A DNA stretch of 24,990 nucleotides from positions 1 to 24,990 of the forward strand of contig JAHIHE010000004.1 of assembly GCA_018899995.1 (NCBI GenBank), written 5' to 3'. The position numbers and the translations under genes are program-made. Positions 9,035 to 24,990 of the stretch are shown piece by piece; the first letter of the stretch is position 1; each line of letters begins with the position of its first letter. The stretch is from Patescibacteria group bacterium. GTDB lineage: Bacteria > Patescibacteriota > Minisyncoccia > JAHIHE01. Below the pieces are notes generated by a model. The model was not told the DNA's origin and did no database searches. It was given only the letters and a program-made list of their open reading frames with translations.

Positions 9035-10315
9035 ATGATCAGCAATATCCTGATTATCGGTAGTGGTGGAAGAGAGCATGCACTCGCATGGAAACTCGCT
9101 CAATCACCACGCATTGGCAAGTTGTATGTCGCGCCCGGAAATGGCGGCACTCGTGACATCGCTGAAAATATTGCGATTGAAGCCACAGACGCCAGGGGTT
9201 TGGCTCGTTTTGCCGAAAAGAATTCAATCAATCTAACAGTAGTCGGTCCTGACGACCCGCTTGCGTTTGGCGTAGTTGATGTTTTTCAATCTCATGGCTT
9301 ACGCATTTTCGGACCCACTCGTGTCGCGGCACAGATTGAGGCATCTAAAGCGTTTGCCAAACGACTTATGCGCGATAGCGATATTCCGACTGCGCCATTT
9401 CGGATATTTCGAAAGCATGAAAGTGCATTAGAATATGTTCGCAAACATGGGGCGCCGATTGTCGTCAAGGCGAGCGGATTGGCGCTTGGCAAAGGTGCCT
9501 ATCCTTGCAAAACACTCGCTAAAGCAGAGAAGGCTCTGGCAGAAATTATGCTTGAGCGCGCTTACAATCAAGCTGGCAACGAAGTCATCGTCGAGGAGTT
9601 TCTGAATGGGCAAGAAGTTTCAATTCACGCTCTCTGCGACGGCAAAACCTCAATCCTATTACCTACCGCGCAAGACCACAAGCCGATTTTCGACGGCGAC
9701 AAGGGCAAGAATACTGGCGGTATGGGAACAATCGCGCCCGTGCCCTGGGTTACGGATCAAACCTTGCGAGAAGTGAACGAGCAAATCGTTCGCCCGACAT
9801 TGCAAGCGCTTACGAAGAAAGGAAAGCCGTTTACTGGTTGTTTGTACCCCGGGCTAAAGATGACAGACGAGGGGCCGAAAGTGCTTGAATACAACGCAAG
9901 ATTTGGCGACCCTGAAACGCAAAGTTATATGCGACTTCTCAAAACAGATTTGCTTGATGTTTTAGACGCATGCGTTGACGGTAAACTCGCCGACCTTGCC
10001 GTTGAATGGAATTCCGGTTTCGCCGTTTGCGTTGTCCTCGCTTCGGGAGGATATCCGGGAAAGTACAAAAAGGAAATTCCGATATCAGGCATTACTGAAG
10101 CGGAGAAAATTCCCGGTGTCGTTGTTTTTCACGCTGGCACAATGTGTAGCGACCAACTTCGGACTTCCGGCGGACGCGTTCTCGGAGTTACAGCAATCGG
10201 TAAAACTCTTCAAAAAGCTCTTGATCGAGCGTACGAAGCAGTTCGCCAAATTAAGTTCAAGGATATGCAGTACCGAAAAGACATCGGTGCTAAAGCCATT
10301 GCTATGGGGTTCTAA
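9035..10315 (+). CDS. purD: Phosphoribosylamine--glycine ligase (GAR synthetase)
   Basis: IGSGGREHALAWKL, APGNGG, KASGLALGKG, QDHK...NTGGMG, EYNARFGDPETQ, TSGGRVL, YRKDIG. SD AAGGAGG at 9021-9027 favours ATG 9035. Confidence 0.97.
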   Translation: MISNILIIGSGGREHALAWKLAQSPRIGKLYVAPGNGGTRDIAENIAIEATDARGLARFAEKNSINLTVVGPDDPLAFGVVDVFQSHGLRIFGPTRVAAQIEASKAFAKRLMRDSDIPTAPFRIFRKHESALEYVRKHGAPIVVKASGLALGKGAYPCKTLAKAEKALAEIMLERAYNQAGNEVIVEEFLNGQEVSIHALCDGKTSILLPTAQDHKPIFDGDKGKNTGGMGTIAPVPWVTDQTLREVNEQIVRPTLQALTKKGKPFTGCLYPGLKMTDEGPKVLEYNARFGDPETQSYMRLLKTDLLDVLDACVDGKLADLAVEWNSGFAVCVVLASGGYPGKYKKEIPISGITEAEKIPGVVVFHAGTMCSDQLRTSGGRVLGVTAIGKTLQKALDRAYEAVRQIKFKDMQYRKDIGAKAIAMGF

Positions 10316-10341
10316 TTCCTTCGGGGATTAGAACCTTTTTT
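10308..10341 (+). terminator. Intrinsic terminator of purD
   Basis: GGTTCTAATTCC-TTCG-GGGATTAGAACC stem-loop followed by a T run. Confidence 0.75.
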
Positions 10342-10454
10342 CTTTTCCGAAAAAGAATTTGCCGCCAAAGCAGTAAATTTTTCAAGCTCATTTTTCTTGA
10401 AAAATTTACTGTAATGAGTTATGATTAACTCATTAGAAAAACTTGAAATTGTCA

Positions 10455-19288: not shown

Positions 19289-20056
19289 ATGAATCTTGAA
19301 TACGCAAAATGCTTAATGGAAAAAACCAAGCGGGACTATGACGAAATTGCCGAGGAATTTTCCGCTACTCGAAAAACAATGTGGCCCGAACTTGCTGATT
19401 TAGACAAATATGTGAAAGCGGGCGATAAAGTTTTGGATATCGGATGCGGCAACGGCCGGCTTTTTGGTTATCTCTTGGAAAGAGTTAAAAACTTTTCCTA
19501 TGTCGGAATTGATGTTTCGGAAAAACTGATAGATATTGCCAAAGGTTTTACTTGGAGGTTGATCCTCCAAGAGGATGCCCAACCTCCAAGCGTTGATTTT
19601 AAAGTTTTTAACGGAATTAATATTCCGTATCCGACTAACAGTTTTGACGCAGTATTTTGTCTGGCGACTTTGCCGCATTTGCCATGCGAAGAACTGCGCC
19701 TTAAATTCCTGCAAAACATCAAAAAAGCGGTTAAGCCCGGCGGTTTGCTGATTATAACTTGCTGGAATCTTTGGCAATTTAAGTTTATATCAAATCAGAT
19801 TAAAATGATAGCCAATTTTATCACAGATAAGATTTCGGGCAAGGGCCGATACGGTTGGGGCGATTTTTACATTCCTTGGCGCAAGCGCGACGGGAAAATA
19901 ATCCACCGATATTACCATTCATTCACGCAAAAGGAGCTTAGCTCCTTATTGAAAAAATCCGGCTGGGAAATAAAGGAATTGGGTTACAAAAAGCGACATA
20001 ACGCGAAAAATTTTAATCTTTTCGCGGTGGCTTGCCCCGTATCAATTCTTAAATAA
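19289..20056 (+). CDS. Class I SAM-dependent methyltransferase
   Basis: VLDIGCGNGRL motif I, YVGIDVS, FDAVFCLATLPHL, VKPGGLLIITCW. Confidence 0.9.
   Translation: MNLEYAKCLMEKTKRDYDEIAEEFSATRKTMWPELADLDKYVKAGDKVLDIGCGNGRLFGYLLERVKNFSYVGIDVSEKLIDIAKGFTWRLILQEDAQPPSVDFKVFNGINIPYPTNSFDAVFCLATLPHLPCEELRLKFLQNIKKAVKPGGLLIITCWNLWQFKFISNQIKMIANFITDKISGKGRYGWGDFYIPWRKRDGKIIHRYYHSFTQKELSSLLKKSGWEIKELGYKKRHNAKNFNLFAVACPVSILK
19551..19590. repeat. Nested palindrome inside the methyltransferase ORF
   Basis: CTTGGAGGTTG / CAACCTCCAAG (11-bp perfect stem) enclosing ATCCTC-CAA-GAGGAT. Confidence 0.8.
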
Positions 20057-20262
20057 ATCTTGCCTATAGGTATTAAAAATAGCCGATAGGCGATACCGAG
20101 GGAGATAATTTTTTATTAAATAATCTTGTTTCGGAATTTGATATGGGGCGGGAAAGCCGGTGGTGGCGAGAAAGTCGTAATAAATTTGTAAAATTAACAG
20201 GCCAGAGATCGCCTTTAAACCCTTTAAAATAAAGGTTTTTTGCGTTTTTGGGGCAAGGGGGC

Positions 20263-20290
20263 GTGACAGATTCTGTGAATATGCTATACT
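20263..20290 (+). promoter_or_regulatory. Putative sigma70 promoter reading into the structured repeat array
   Basis: GTGACA 20263-20268, 16-bp spacer, extended -10 TG-C-TATACT (20282-20290). Confidence 0.45.
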
Positions 20291-20388
20291 GGGGAGTTCT
20301 GAAAATGAGAAAGTAAATGCAGTTGGCGATAAGCACAATTATAAAAAGAGAGGAAAGAATGTCCAGCCACGTTCATTCTTTCCCTCTT

Positions 20389-20461
20389 AATTCTCCAAGT
20401 TTATCTTAATTAAAAAGGTAATCTTAGAAAAGCTTTTAAGAAAAAATCTTGAAGGCCTAAA
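20389..20461 (+). repeat. Structured two-hairpin repeat, copy 1
   Basis: AATTCTCCAAG...TTAGAAAA-GCTTTTAAGA/TCTTGAAGGC-CTAAA. Confidence 0.85.
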
Positions 20462-20642
20462 TTGCACATTGAAAAATATAAAAAACCACCCCCATTCATT
20501 TTTATTTTTTCCTTGTCGGGTTTTGGCGCAAAGAGGCTAAAAAAGTTTTGGCCTTCCCGCGCCGAGACTCGACTGGATTTTTTCAGTTTTTTAGTTGAGT
20601 TCTTGGCGAAACTGATTGTAAAAAAAATTGGAGGGAAAAAAT

Positions 20643-21038
20643 ATGAAAAATATCAGAAAAAGGTTTGAAAGACTGATAAGAATTTGCACCAATAATGTCG
20701 GCTGCAAATTCAGCCAGGAATATACAAGACTGGCTATGCAGTCTGAAGAAAACTTCAAGGTAGCTCTTGAAGTAAAAGAAGAGTGGAACAAGTGTCACAG
20801 GATAGACTTCAGGCTTCCAGATACGGAATGTATGAAATACGTCCTGGGATACACGTCTTCCTGGATAGCGAAGGAAGATGTTAAATTCCTTCGAATTGAA
20901 AAAAGGTGTGCACCCGATTGGGGGACGTATGAAGGCGGCGAGTATGAAGTCGCCGTCTATGAAGTAAACGGGGAAGAAAAAATGGCCACCGATTGGGACC
21001 CCGAAACTATGAGACCACTCCCGATGGGGTGCTCATAA
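20643..21038 (+). CDS. Hypothetical protein (cargo between repeats 1 and 2)
   Basis: GGAGG SD at 20630-20634 before ATG 20643; no recognisable motif. Confidence 0.7.
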   Translation: MKNIRKRFERLIRICTNNVGCKFSQEYTRLAMQSEENFKVALEVKEEWNKCHRIDFRLPDTECMKYVLGYTSSWIAKEDVKFLRIEKRCAPDWGTYEGGEYEVAVYEVNGEEKMATDWDPETMRPLPMGCS

Positions 21039-21107
21039 AAAGTAAAAAGGTTGTCTGGCAAGCACTTGCCGGGCATGGGAAAGTACCTTAAATCTAAAAT
21101 CTTTCCC

Positions 21108-21179
21108 AATTTTTCCAAGTTTATCTTAAATGAAAGGTAAATTTAGAAAAGCTTTTAAGAAAAAACTTGAAAGCCTCAA
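21108..21179 (+). repeat. Structured two-hairpin repeat, copy 2
   Basis: AATTTTTCCAAGTTTATCTT...AAGGTAAATTTAGAAAA-GCTTTTAAG/CTTGAAAGC-CTCAA. Confidence 0.85.
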
Positions 21180-21345
21180 GTCTTCAAATCGCGGAAACGC
21201 GAAGAGAAGCATGCACATTGATAAAAAGGAAAGGTTATTAAAGGGTTTATCTTCGGGGTAATTTTGGTCGCTAATTTTAACGGCCAGAATTACCCTGAAG
21301 ATCGCCAAAAGTTTTGGTTGAATTGGAGGGGATGGAGGAAAAGAT

Positions 21346-22014
21346 ATGAAACACATAATAATTTCAGACAAATGGCAGTTTGGAACAGACCCGTTCCCGG
21401 CGTACAGGTGTAGTCTGGTTTATGGCCGGAATCAGAGAGACCGCGAGTTTCTGCCAACAAACGGAATTACTCCAACCGAGTTTGCCGTTTTTAAAAGCGG
21501 CCATGAGAAACAGGGTCCCGAATACAAGGGTACACTTGACGGAGCCCGGAAGGTGGCCGATGAATGGAATAAGGATCATCCGAAAGGGACATATGCTCAG
21601 GCGTATGTAACACACCATGGTGTTTTGCCCGAGAATAAATTTTGTGTCATCAAGACACAAGAAAAAGGCACCATTCTTGCAGTGTCCGGAGAAGACAAGA
21701 CAAATAGATGCCTGCTGTTTGTCGGATGCGCTGGTGGATTCCGTGGTGGAGTATCTGTCTTAACAGACGGAACCACAGGAACAATCCTAATCAAATGTTC
21801 CGCAGGCAACGCCTGCGAAAGTAGTGTTGAGGCCATTGCGATACTCGCGATTGGCCAGTCAATTGCGTTCCATACCAGCGGACGCCGAACCAATGAGGTA
21901 TACCAATACCTCTGGAACGGAAAAGAAGTGGAAAAGAAGCACTACTCCAAAGCCGAATGGGACAGTCGTTCTGTGGCAATAGCGCCACAAACTGCAAAGG
22001 CAGAAGTTCTTTAA
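21346..22014 (+). CDS. Hypothetical protein (cargo)
   Basis: 222 aa; GGAGG SD upstream; visibly more GC-rich than the flanks. Confidence 0.8.
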   Translation: MKHIIISDKWQFGTDPFPAYRCSLVYGRNQRDREFLPTNGITPTEFAVFKSGHEKQGPEYKGTLDGARKVADEWNKDHPKGTYAQAYVTHHGVLPENKFCVIKTQEKGTILAVSGEDKTNRCLLFVGCAGGFRGGVSVLTDGTTGTILIKCSAGNACESSVEAIAILAIGQSIAFHTSGRRTNEVYQYLWNGKEVEKKHYSKAEWDSRSVAIAPQTAKAEVL

Positions 22015-22146
22015 AAAAGAACTTCTAAATAAATTTTTAACCTTTCCTTTTTTCCTTCGAATTCATTTTGAATGCAAAGTGGATTCAAAGGAGGAAATTT
22101 GTTCTTTTCAAAAAAATAATAGCAGGGAGAAAATTGATTGCTTTTC

Positions 22147-22234
22147 TGTCAGAGGCGTAAAGCGCCGAATGACCTTTCACGAATGCGAGGGGTCGCACAT
22201 TCGTGCGGGATTCTTCGCTTCGCTCAGAATGACA
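22147..22234. repeat. CGTC-type REP pair (TGTCA...TGACA)
   Basis: Right half GGATTCTTCGCTTCGCTCAGAATGAC; central CACGAATG/CATTCGTG hairpin. Confidence 0.7.
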
Positions 22235-22315
22235 ATTATAAAAAACGGTCAGTTTTATCCCTGCTATAAAGAAAATTAGAAAAGAAACGCGGGGAGAAGG
22301 AATAAGTGATTAGAA

Positions 22316-23173
22316 ATGGTAGAATACAGATTTTTACAGTTGGACCCGCGGTCCAAAGAACAGACGGAAATCTTTATGGGGATTGAGGTTACAATCCCGA
22401 ATGTGGAAATAACATCGGGAATAAATCTCGATCATCACGGGAAAGATGATACAGCCGAAACCCCAGCGGCTTGCGAGCAGGCGCTTCAGGCGGAGTTACC
22501 GCCAGAAGACGCAACGATAGCCACGGTCCGAACCGACCAGGACAGTATTACCGCAATGGCGGTAATAGCTAACCGGGCGATCGGGCGAAAAGTGGACGAA
22601 TTAGTCGTCAGGGCAGTCGGTCTTATGGACCGGTATGGTCCCAAGGTTGAAGAGCAGCTCCGCCATGATTTGGTGGTAGCGATAGCCCGGAAGGCGGCGG
22701 ATTTCAAGGTTCCGCTTGACCAGCGAGTGGCTTTTGTCCAAGCTTGCTTGGATGGAACCTATAATCCCGAGGAAATTGCTTTACTTGTTGAAGCGCGGAA
22801 TCGAGAGTTTGAGGGGTCCCGGAAGGCAAGTCAGGTCAAAACGGCCGCCGGTGGCAGAATTGCGGTAGTTGTGTCAACGCACCGTTTTGCAACTAATCTG
22901 GGCTACGAAGTAGCGCCAGTAGTGGTTGCAACGAATCCGTCTATGCCGGTGATTGGCGAAAGTGGAAAGCCCGTAGGAGAAACCTATCTCAAGCACACAG
23001 TTTGCAGATGGGATTCAAATGTTCCGGTTGATCTTGAAGGAGCTTTGAAAGAGTTTCAAAGCATTGAACCGGGCTGGGGCGGCAGAGGCGATATCTTCGG
23101 CTCGCCACAAGGCGTGTCGTCAAAGCTTACCACCGAACAAGTGGTAGGAATGGTGGAGAAATATCTCCACTAA
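22316..23173 (+). CDS. Hypothetical protein with DHH-like phosphoesterase motifs
   Basis: NLDHHG, DQDS and C-terminal GWGGRGDIFGSP; family assignment uncertain. Confidence 0.55.
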   Translation: MVEYRFLQLDPRSKEQTEIFMGIEVTIPNVEITSGINLDHHGKDDTAETPAACEQALQAELPPEDATIATVRTDQDSITAMAVIANRAIGRKVDELVVRAVGLMDRYGPKVEEQLRHDLVVAIARKAADFKVPLDQRVAFVQACLDGTYNPEEIALLVEARNREFEGSRKASQVKTAAGGRIAVVVSTHRFATNLGYEVAPVVVATNPSMPVIGESGKPVGETYLKHTVCRWDSNVPVDLEGALKEFQSIEPGWGGRGDIFGSPQGVSSKLTTEQVVGMVEKYLH

Positions 23174-23288
23174 AGAGAAAGGACGGACTTAATCCATCCA
23201 AAAGCACTTTTGGAGCAGAAAGATAAAATGAAATGAAGGAAGTTTTGCGAAAGCGAAATTTCCCGATTATCTTGTTTTTCTGCTCCTC

Positions 23289-23359
23289 AATTTTTCTAAG
23301 TTCGTAAAATTTTTTGCGGATTTAGAAAAGCTCTCAAGAAAAAAGCTTGAAAGCCTAAA
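23289..23359 (+). repeat. Structured two-hairpin repeat, copy 3
   Basis: AATTTTTCTAAGTTCGTAAAA...TTTTGCGGATTTAGAAAA-GCTCTCAAG/CTTGAAAGC-CTAAA. Confidence 0.85.
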
Positions 23360-23377
23360 AATGTTCTTTTTAAAATA

Positions 23378-23800
23378 TTATTTTTTGAAGCGATTCAGAA
23401 ATTGCCGCGGAGTAAGAACTGGAATATTTTGAAAAGATTTTAGTTTCAGCAGATGTTTGTCGCCTGAGATAATAAAATCAGCTTCGGAATTTAGGGCGCA
23501 ATCCAAGATTATATTATCCGATGGATCATCTTTGATAATTTTTAATGGTTTTTCTGATGAGGAAAAAATTAAACAATCATTTATAATTGCTTTGATTATT
23601 TTTTCTGCCGTTAAGTTAATTTTTAGCAGAGGAATAGCAAATTTTGGATAATTTAAAACGCGAGTTATTTCTTGGATTATTTGAAGATTGATAGATACTG
23701 TAATTTGATTTTTCCGGAATAAAGCATAAAGAGATTCTAATTCTTTGTTTCGCCAAATAAGCATTGAAATAAAAATATTTGTGTCAAAAACAACCCTCAT
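23378..23800 (-). CDS. PIN-domain toxin (COG1569-like)
   Basis: MRVVFDTNIFIS, DDPSDNIILDCAL, DFIISGDKHLL. Start moved to ATG 23800. Confidence 0.9.
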   Translation of the reverse strand: MRVVFDTNIFISMLIWRNKELESLYALFRKNQITVSINLQIIQEITRVLNYPKFAIPLLKINLTAEKIIKAIINDCLIFSSSEKPLKIIKDDPSDNIILDCALNSEADFIISGDKHLLKLKSFQNIPVLTPRQFLNRFKK

Positions 23801-23804
23801 AAAA

Positions 23805-24026
23805 TTATTTAGGCTTATTTCGCGCCCAACAAATAGCATCTCGAATATCTTTTTTGGAAATCAATTTTCCAAGCTTAAGAAGATCGGGGCGTAAATTTTT
23901 TAATGAAGGTTCTTGAATTTTTTTAACGATAATAGTATCTTTTGATTCTCTAATAATCACTTTTTTCCCTATCCATTCTTTTGGTAAAACAATGCTTTGT
24001 CCAGTAAATTTAGTTTGATAATTCAT
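23805..24026 (-). CDS. Putative antitoxin (AbrB-like swapped-hairpin N-terminus)
   Basis: 73 aa immediately upstream of the PIN gene; IVLPKEWIGKKVII. Confidence 0.7.
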   Translation of the reverse strand: MNYQTKFTGQSIVLPKEWIGKKVIIRESKDTIIVKKIQEPSLKNLRPDLLKLGKLISKKDIRDAICWARNKPK

Positions 24027-24054
24027 AAATTTTTAATTATTTTCTTATAAATTT

Positions 24055-24082
24055 ATTATACTCTCTTAAAATCCAGTGTCAA
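24055..24082 (-). promoter_or_regulatory. Consensus promoter of the first TA pair
   Basis: Minus strand TTGACA (24082-24077), 16 bp, TATAAT (24060-24055). The -35 box overlaps the left edge of repeat copy 4. Confidence 0.75.
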
Positions 24083-24151
24083 TTTTCCAAGCTTATAAAC
24101 TCGTTGTAAGTTTAGAAAAGCCCCTGAATTAAAAAGATTCGGAGGCCTAAA
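24081..24151 (+). repeat. Structured two-hairpin repeat, copy 4
   Basis: AATTTTCCAAGCTTATAA...TTGTAAGTTTAGAAAA-GCCCCTGAAT/ATTCGGAGGC-CTAAA. Confidence 0.85.
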
Positions 24152-24253
24152 GTCCTCAATTCATTAGAAATAATGATAAGAGGCAAGCACATTTATAAAG
24201 GAAAGAGGGTTTTTCTCAAAAAAGAGAATCAGCCACGCCCTCTTTCCCCTCCT

Positions 24254-24413
24254 AATTTTTTCCAAGTTTGTCTTTAAATGTCATGCTGAATTTATTTCAG
24301 CATCTATAAAAGATTCTGAAACAAGTTCAGGATGACAACAAGAAAGGTAAATTTAGAAAAGCCCCCAAATAACTTATGAATTATAACAAATAACTCATAA
24401 CGAAATTGGAGGC
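24254..24413 (+). repeat. Structured two-hairpin repeat, copy 5 (both loops expanded)
   Basis: AATTTTTTCCAAGTTTGTCTTT...[59-bp REP]...AAAGGTAAATTTAGAAAA-GCCCCCAA...TTGGAGGC. Confidence 0.8.
24279..24337. repeat. CGTC-type REP pair inserted in repeat copy 5
   Basis: TGTCATGCTGAATTTATTTCAGCATCT...AGATTCTGAAACAAGTTCAGGATGACA. Confidence 0.8.
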
Positions 24414-24492
24414 GAGATCGCAAAAGGCTCCACACGGAGTATGGAGCCAACGGTAATATAATAAATGTTCTTTATAAAACAAATCACAAAAC

Positions 24493-24864
24493 TCAAATTG
24501 ATTTAACGGAGATCTCTTTAATTTTCTGAAAATGTTTTAAATTGCGAGTGGCTAGAACGCAATCAAGATAATAGCAGGTGGAAGCGATTAAAGCGTCAGC
24601 GATATTTGTCCGATATTTTTTATAGAAATCAGCCGCTTTTCCAGCGACCTGCGAAGTAATATTGATTGAAGGAAAAATAGACAGAAGCCGTTTTATTTCT
24701 ATACTTTCTTTTTTGGAAAACTTTCCGCACAGAACTTCATACTCAGTGATCACAGAAATAAAAGCGGAAAGCTTTCCTTTCTCAATTTCCTCTAAAAACA
24801 GCCCTGCTTTCGCATCGCCTCGCAAGTGATCAATTAAAATATTCGTATCAACAAGATAGCGCAT
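24493..24864 (-). CDS. VapC-like PIN-domain toxin
   Basis: MRYLVDTNILID, SVITEYEV, ADALIASTC, LATRNLKHF. Confidence 0.9.
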   Translation of the reverse strand: MRYLVDTNILIDHLRGDAKAGLFLEEIEKGKLSAFISVITEYEVLCGKFSKKESIEIKRLLSIFPSINITSQVAGKAADFYKKYRTNIADALIASTCYYLDCVLATRNLKHFQKIKEISVKSI

Positions 24865-24868
24865 AATA

Positions 24869-24990
24869 TTATTTTATTCTTTTAAATCTTTCTTTCCACC
24901 CTTTCCTCAATGAATTTTCAAAACTGATTCCTTTTAAAAATTTCTTGCCTAAAATTCCGCTAGTTTCTCCGATAATTGAAATATCTTCAG
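24869..24990 (-). CDS. Putative antitoxin, 3' part only (5' end outside window)
   Basis: Open frame ...GILGKKFLKGISFENSLRKGWKERFKRIK-stop ending 4 bp before the PIN start. Confidence 0.6.
   Translation of the reverse strand, partial: EDISIIGETSGILGKKFLKGISFENSLRKGWKERFKRIK

Follow-up and report, generated by a model that had tools for sequence, protein, structure and literature searches.

A variable hairpin marks the downstream ends of forward-facing genes beside a structured repeat in a patescibacterial cassette array

The 24,990-nt contig JAHIHE010000004.1 of a Patescibacteria group bacterium (assembly GCA_018899995.1), which was analysed over its whole length and is called the window here, carries an array of small genes set among five copies of a structured repeat, and this array runs past the contig end. 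In the earlier note, four of the five copies were described as preceded by the motif AAGCAC and by a perfect stem that differed in every copy; motif and stem together were taken for an upstream module of the repeat, and the full unit was put at ~170 nt. Whether this stem, which we call P0, belongs to the repeat at all, and in which process it might act, is the question raised by this locus. We found that P0 is a unit separate from the repeat core and that it marks the downstream end of forward-facing genes. Its role is less certain. The explanation that we favour, with a probability of about 40%, is that P0 is an RNA 3'-end or insulator hairpin of promoterless forward cassettes in a promoter-headed array, a role at the RNA level that we infer from sequence features. 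Genomes, contigs and loci are identified below by our own G, C and L labels, respectively.

All of the strings and stem arms reported for the window were found in place (arms at 20352/20374, 21077/21101, 23212/23277 and 24200/24238; CAGCCACG at 20364 and 24230). Each copy was scored by its longest perfect stem with a 3' arm ending within 12 nt of the repeat edge, and was compared to 200 dinucleotide shuffles. Copies 1, 2, 3 and 5 had perfect stems of 10, 8, 10 and 10 bp, respectively, as compared to means of 4.6-5.5 bp in the shuffled controls (p = 0.005-0.01 for each of the four). Copy 4 had no anchored stem above the shuffle level (p = 0.6), which upheld the earlier observation that it lacks one. 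A promoter-like site is also present on the minus strand inside P0 copy 1 (20338-20365; TGGACA, 16-nt spacer, TATAAT; 11/12); it points out of the array and is followed by no convincing gene.

The presence of P0 depended on the orientation of the upstream cassette. In all six units that have a reverse-facing toxin-antitoxin operon as upstream neighbour, P0 was absent, and its place was occupied by a minus-strand promoter (TTGAC[AT], 16-17-nt spacer, TATAAT), the -35 box of which is completed by the core edge TCAA. Furthermore, two near-identical cores of a related genome (G026) share homology that starts exactly at CAATTTTTCC, one of them following a P0 and the other a minus-strand promoter. 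Because P0 is missing behind reverse operons and the cores start at CAATTTTTCC in either case, P0 is not part of the repeat, as had been proposed, and instead closes the trailer of forward-facing genes.

The position of the hairpin was conserved in relatives, which are also ultra-small bacteria of groundwater. We surveyed 55 units from about 20 genomes and one metagenome contig, scoring as P0 any hairpin of -6 kcal/mol or lower that closed within 5 nt of the core edge and had a 5' arm of at least 70% purine. Such a hairpin was present in 29 of the 49 units without a minus-strand promoter, as compared to 9.5% of 1497 random positions in the same loci (binomial p of about 1e-17, a value that is overstated, since related genomes are not independent). 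It always closed 0-5 nt from the core-opening YAA. Among 39 edge hairpins, the 5' arm was purine-rich in 29 and pyrimidine-rich in 2, whereas the corresponding control values were 21% and 19%. The base of the stem follows the pattern GGAR/YUCC and is almost always GGAG, GGGA or GGAA with CUCC, UCCC or UUCC. Read in order, the layout is a junction motif (GYWCWTT, described below), often a T-run, a Watson-Crick inverted repeat with the GGAR/YUCC base, YAA and the U-run that opens the core. P0 showed no strand preference: stability was higher on the plus strand in 15 units and on the minus strand in the other 14, and G-U pairs made up 39 of 489 pairs (8%).

P0 sequences fall into a few families that are common to several genomes. 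In the copy-2 type, a conserved trailer runs from AAAGGT through a GCAC-bearing hairpin to GGGAAAG...CTTTCCC; it recurs behind unrelated open reading frames (ORFs) in G026 and G016, with a compensatory change from A-T to G-C (GGGAAAG/CTTTCCC vs GGGAGA/TCTCCC). The copy-3 type is a branched hairpin also found on C161 of the window's own genome (G000), in G026 and G023 and on the metagenome contig L059. Copies 1 and 5 represent a mini-module of roughly 60-75 nt (ATGCACTTTAT-AAAAGG-AAAGAG...CTCTTTCC-CCTCCTAA), which also occurs in G026 and has four copies in L059; its inner pairs covary (compensatory variants GGAAAGAATG/CATTCTTTCC, GGAAAGAGGG/CCCTCTTTCC and GGAAAGAGAGAAT/ATTCTCTCTTT). The 8-mer shared by copies 1 and 5 is explained by their being paralogues of this one mini-module. 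Thus, the suggestion that the stems differ in every copy and that structure rather than sequence is selected was borne out in part: the hairpin keeps its position across genera while its sequence changes, and pairs change in a compensatory manner within families. However, the sequence is constrained as well, as seen from the polarity of the arms, the GGAR/YUCC base and the paralogy of copies 1 and 5.

AAGCAC was not specific to the stem. Of its eight plus-strand occurrences in the window, four precede a repeat copy within about 50-85 nt (20331, 21060, 23202 and 24185); GCACATT occurs at 20464, 21213 and 24187. The cores are followed by a motif with the consensus G-Y-W-C-W-T-T and then an A-run (GCACATTGAAAA, GTTCTTTAAAA, GTACATTGAAA). 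The strict pattern was found within 140 nt of 26 of the 55 cores, and several further variants were recognised by eye. The four upstream AAGCAC sites read GCACAAT, GCACTTG, GCACTTT and GCACATT, each matching this consensus or differing at one position, and the site of copy 5 is literally the motif that closes copy 4. AAGCAC and GCACATT are one recurring junction motif that lies outside the stem. It also stands directly before P0 in other genomes (GAGCACTTTT, followed by GGAGAG, in G017; AGCACATTAAA... in G008) and in L059 (GCACATTTGGAGCAG and GTACATTTGGAGCAG, in the same place as that of copy 3). GCAC was found within 45 nt upstream of 9 of the 29 P0 hairpins in relatives, where about 2 were expected, and is thus enriched but not obligatory; in the window, 4-11 nt separate it from the P0 that follows and 2-6 nt from the P2 or P3 that precedes it. 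Junction-to-junction distances of 131, 151, 159 and 280 nt indicate that the unit has no fixed length of ~170 nt, and the 174-nt period of copies 4 to 5 is due to the unit there being ORF-less. The junction motif was also considered as a promoter box and rejected: its spacing to a partner hexamer was inconsistent by eye, only copy 3 giving TTGAAA, 18 nt, TAAAAT.

The repeat core consists of two adjacent hairpins that fold on the plus strand, P1 (TTTTC-C-AAGTTTATC...GGTAAATTT-A-GAAAA) and P2 (GCTTTTAAG...CTTGAAAGC). A covariance model built from four copies matched other contigs of the same genome (C161, C139, C96 and C61), of which C161 appears to hold the far end of the array. It also matched 25 of 101 related genomes, mostly in one family of the same order, and these matches form same-strand arrays (e.g., G024:C31, G026:C27, G016:C6 and G023:C50). 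Among 57 distinct core sequences, 95% of cells were paired and 18 of 22 pairs were altered on both sides, counts that lean towards structure because the alignment was fitted to the model. This pairing was equalled in 0 of 500 shuffles, and sliding the partner columns left only 29-63% pairing. Unlike P0, the core was more stable on the plus strand in 44 of the 55 units, as compared to 11 for the minus strand (mean -5.8 kcal/mol, p = 3e-7), and it has conserved G-U pairs on the plus strand. An Rfam scan of positions 20000-24990 (E <= 1) gave no relevant family, its sole match being a chance microRNA (E = 0.41). With no Rfam match and no strand asymmetry in P0, nothing points to the ligand-binding cis-regulatory RNA that had also been considered.

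The P1 loop is a hotspot of differing inserts of 40-130 nt (window 24278-24340, L042 and L059; e.g., GTCATTCTGAATTTAGTTCAGAATC), and cores of G026 and L059 are identical apart from their P1-loop insert. A 16-mer at the left edge of core copy 4, CAATTTTCCAAGCTTA (24081-24096), recurs within the antitoxin gene of the adjacent cassette (23866-23881). In L010 (G000:C139:3400-4250), two cores flank one reverse toxin-antitoxin cassette, and the second core retains P1 with unrelated sequence in the P2 position. In front of the G002 orthologue of the downstream gene of L010 stand the conserved head promoter, a single core and a small forward ORF.

The promoter at the head of the array (TGCTATACTGG) was also found behind the orthologous methyltransferase in G003 and upstream of cores in G002:C18 and G002:C22, and in G000 and G002:C18 a junction-like motif follows about 30-40 nt past it. 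No promoter-like site of at least 9/12 precedes the forward genes A, B and C, whereas each reverse cassette examined has a consensus promoter, and some have a canonical minus-strand terminator (GGCTCCA...TGGAGCC + TTTTG). In relatives the cargo includes PIN toxin-antitoxin pairs, a viperin-like radical-SAM enzyme with a SAVED protein, a GNAT acetyltransferase and DEAH helicases; judging by sequence alone, two more reverse pairs look like HEPN/nucleotidyltransferase and HicAB-type modules. The PIN cassette of the window (24410-24990) is 90.6-91.8% identical to its copies in G026 and L059, that is, between bacterial families, as compared to 69-75% for flanking housekeeping DNA, and we read these values as signs of recent exchange between families. 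One core variant was seen with different cassettes attached right behind the junction motif. ORF-less units of the form core - junction motif - P0 - core were present in the window (copies 4 to 5) and in L059 (at 1205). No RNA run was listed among the public sequencing runs that contain this DNA. Contigs from four public DNA runs were fragmented, with other core copies at the joints, and gave no usable cassette breakpoints, and a pattern scan of metagenomes returned only 5 loci, one of which (L059) was a rich array. Full-text searches of the literature gave no description of such an array in these tiny bacteria of groundwater.

According to the RNA 3'-end or insulator explanation, a transcript from the head promoter would read through the forward cassettes, and P0 would act within that RNA, defining or protecting the 3' end of each forward message and insulating neighbouring cassettes. 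P0 would be a leaky, probably bidirectional stop or stabiliser rather than a full terminator; its leakiness would leave downstream cassettes expressed, and its symmetry would block antisense transcription. The equal folding of P0 on both strands is consistent with such a two-way block. P0 as the genome's ordinary type of terminator was rejected, since G-containing purine-armed stems of at least 8 bp followed by TTTTTCC were confined to cores (C160, C96) in a genome-wide listing. Several results weigh against the explanation. No outer P0 stem was flagged in a terminator scan, the loops are 12-55 nt long, the T-run begins 3-8 nt beyond the stem in copies 1, 3 and 5, and folding-energy z-scores relative to shuffles were modest, mostly -1 to -3. 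A simple 3'-end hairpin accounts for neither the purine-first polarity nor the GGAR/YUCC base, and the equal strand folding, the flanking direct junction motifs and the ORF-less units of junction motif and P0 fit a role at the DNA level equally well. GNRA and UUCG loops were not counted as proof of RNA, because d(GCGAAAGC) also forms a very stable hairpin as DNA.

A DNA-level role is the main rival, and it is not exclusive of the RNA-level one; both can hold together. P0 and the junction motif would then form the variable, structure-defined arm of a recombination site, a functional counterpart of attC/attI or of the left-end hairpin of IS200/IS605-type elements, and a recombinase with its gene elsewhere would insert or excise cassettes at the junction motif. 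We regard this as rather unlikely. It agrees with an integron-like layout in which the sites share a strand, promoter-like sites are absent from the forward cassettes, the reverse toxin-antitoxin ones are self-sufficient and a junction motif comes about 35-40 nt after the head promoter. Direct junction motifs flank ORF segments and P0 plus core alike, the ORF-less units resemble empty sites, and a single toxin-antitoxin cassette lies between two cores on C139; the joining of one core variant to different cassettes, the high identity of the PIN cassette between families, and the strand symmetry and few G-U pairs of P0 point in the same direction. However, no array contig examined carries a tyrosine or serine recombinase gene, the Y1 transposase has no match in G000, and a gene resembling those of repetitive extragenic palindrome (REP)-associated tyrosine transposases (RAYTs) does not co-occur with the repeat. 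The RYYYAAC/GTTRRRY boxes of integron sites are absent, the two junction motifs are direct repeats and so unable to pair, the motif has no surrounding palindromic arms, and P0 is missing at reverse cassettes and so is not an obligatory part of a site. It is unlikely, though conceivable, that junction motif, P0 and core together constitute the attachment site of an undescribed gene-cassette capture system of ultra-small bacteria of the Candidate Phyla Radiation (CPR) type, with a head promoter and no adjacent integrase, in which P0 would be a structure-read, sequence-free arm marking forward cassettes and the junction motif the crossover point.

More doubtful is a reading in which P0, P1, P2 and an optional tail hairpin would make up one non-coding RNA of 130-280 nt, near the proposed 170-nt unit, that is cut from the array transcript at both junction motifs. 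By analogy with mitochondrial tRNAs or phage T7 RNase III sites, it would punctuate the polycistronic RNA. Junction motifs do bracket P0 and core in four window units and several L059 units, P0 always closes next to the core-opening YAA, and the core has strong covariation and conserved plus-strand G-U pairs. However, behind reverse cassettes P0 and the left junction motif are missing while the core is intact, cores exist without any forward gene (C139), P0 lacks the plus-strand signature of the core, and no Rfam family matches. Finally, we consider it improbable that P0 is a translational device, in which an anti-Shine-Dalgarno-like 3' arm (CUCC) would mask a Shine-Dalgarno-like 5' arm (GGAG, GAGG) and thereby regulate either a tiny ORF in the loop or the gene that comes next. 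GGAG, GAGG or AGGA is present in nearly every 5' arm, GAGG is followed after 5 nt by ATG in copy 1 (16 codons), and ATGAAATGA is kept in the copy-3 family. However, a Shine-Dalgarno motif followed by ATG was present in 6 of 29 units as compared to 3.8 expected, and the tiny loop ORF was rejected for this lack of enrichment; reading frames and stop positions vary between copies, and in the window no real start codon follows P0 for roughly 250-300 nt.

Table 1. Coordinates of promoters, junction motifs, P0 hairpins and cores in the window.
Feature	Position	Strand	Remarks
Array-head promoter	20263..20290	+	GTGACA, 16-nt spacer, TATACT; TG before second hexamer (TGcTATACT)
Junction motif GCACAAT ahead of P0 copy 1	20333..20339	+	first AAGCAC
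P0 copy 1	20347..20388	+	perfect stem GGAAAGAATG/CATTCTTTCC, extending to AGAGAGG/CCCTCT; mini-module family
Core copy 1 (P1, P2)	20386..20464	+	79.9 bits, covariance model
Junction motif GCACATT after core 1	20464..20470	+	string match
Hairpin TGTCTGGCAA-GCAC-TTGCCGGGCA in gene A trailer	21052..21075	+	contains second AAGCAC; conserved in G026 and G016 trailers
P0 copy 2	21076..21108	+	stem TGGGAAAG/CTTTCCCA
Core copy 2	21106..21183	+	80.4 bits, covariance model
Junction motif GCACATT after core 2 and GAAA-capped hairpin	21213..21219	+	string match
CCAAAA-GCAC-TTTTGG	23196..23211	+	third AAGCAC; junction motif GCACTTT directly before P0 copy 3
P0 copy 3	23212..23286	+	branched hairpin, outer stem GGAGCAGAAAGA/TCTTTCTGCTCC
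Core copy 3	23287..23362	+	91.3 bits, covariance model
Promoter of reverse-facing PIN toxin-antitoxin cassette	24055..24082	-	TTGACA, 16-nt spacer, TATAAT; 12/12; in P0's place, -35 completed by core edge TCAA
Core copy 4, without P0	24079..24154	+	77.3 bits, covariance model; no anchored stem
Junction motif GCACATT, downstream of copy 4 and upstream of copy 5	24187..24193	+	fourth AAGCAC
P0 copy 5	24200..24247	+	stem GGAAAGAGGG/CCCTCTTTCC; ORF-less mini-module between two cores
Core copy 5, both loops with insertions	24253..24418	+	partial model match, 24.6 bits

The G026 homologues of the hairpin in the gene A trailer were flagged as terminator-like on the minus strand. A conserved structured leader precedes forward genes (window 20493-20627; CATTCATTTT..GTCGGGTTTTGGCG..GGCTAAA..TTTTGGCC..GCGCCGAGACTCGAC, a long nested hairpin); sequences 76-86% identical to it stand ahead of unrelated ORFs in G026, G016 and L059, and it matches no Rfam family. 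Between genes B and C (22120-22275), a hairpin, GCAGGGAGAAAAT...TCCCTGC, is split by an insert of roughly 90 nt with TTCGCTTCGCTCAGAATGAC, and its counterpart in L059 (2283-2330) is uninterrupted. At 22200-22245, contigs of public metagenomes pile up and break off, in the manner expected of a widespread small repeat. In L045 (G016:C1:89000-97000), the array ends about 260 nt upstream of groES-groEL, and the arrays of G016:C6 and G018:C64 end beside homologous genes, which suggests fixed chromosomal hotspots. A CIRCE-like operator was considered, as groES adjoins one array, and was rejected, the order of the arms being wrong.

The arrays carry toxin-antitoxin and defence-type genes, one cassette being about 91% identical between families. 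Telling apart the core as constant repeat, the junction motif and P0 as the cargo end provides a search grammar for such arrays, exact places in which to look for recombination breakpoints or RNA ends, and a clean set of mutants (P0 arms, junction motif and core).

Among known systems, intrinsic and bidirectional terminators resemble P0 in having a hairpin right behind a gene and then a T-run, in the A-rich 5' flank of the mini-module type and in equal stability on both strands. However, P0 has long or branched loops and A/G-rich stems, its T-run is paired within P1 and, in three of the four window copies, stands off from the stem, and it does not show the combination of a G+C-rich stem, a loop of 3-8 nt and a U-tract starting 0-2 nt past that stem, by which intrinsic terminators are defined. 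Bona fide terminators in the same DNA are canonical, such as those behind purD (10310-10345) and of the GGCTCCA...TGGAGCC type mentioned above. Hairpins of the REP and bacterial interspersed mosaic element (BIME) type and phage T7 RNase III sites are repeated intergenic hairpins in polycistronic transcripts, where they set or protect mRNA 3' ends, and P0 may be like both in being a repeated intergenic hairpin. Unlike REP/BIME sequences, it has no REP tetranucleotide tags and no RAYT association, and it occurs only next to the core rather than as a genome-wide repeat family. No match to PF01797, as would mark IS200/IS605 or REP-RAYT systems, was found in G000, and 8 genomes with the core lacked the RAYT-like protein, whose gene lies beside one array, whereas 6 genomes lacking the core had it.

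The comparison with integron arrays and their attC sites, including clusters of attC sites lacking integron integrases (CALINs), brings out both differences and likenesses. There is no IntI gene here: PF00589 matches in G000, G016, G023, G024 and G026 were all on other contigs, and no large serine recombinase was found on the array contigs examined. By eye, the inverted attC core sites R'' (RYYYAAC) and R' (GTTRRRY), which pair with each other once the strand is folded, had no counterpart in a consistent GTTRRRY box, and GCACWTT was direct on both sides, so that the flanking motifs are direct repeats and not inverted ones. In addition, the site comprises two to four separate hairpins, as opposed to the one bulged hairpin of attC, and long conserved leaders and trailers surround the ORFs. 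In both systems, however, structured sites in the same orientation lie between small accessory genes, a single head promoter precedes forward cassettes that have no promoter-like sites, toxin-antitoxin cassettes run in the reverse direction from promoters of their own, ORF-less units occur, and the structure of the site is better conserved than its sequence.

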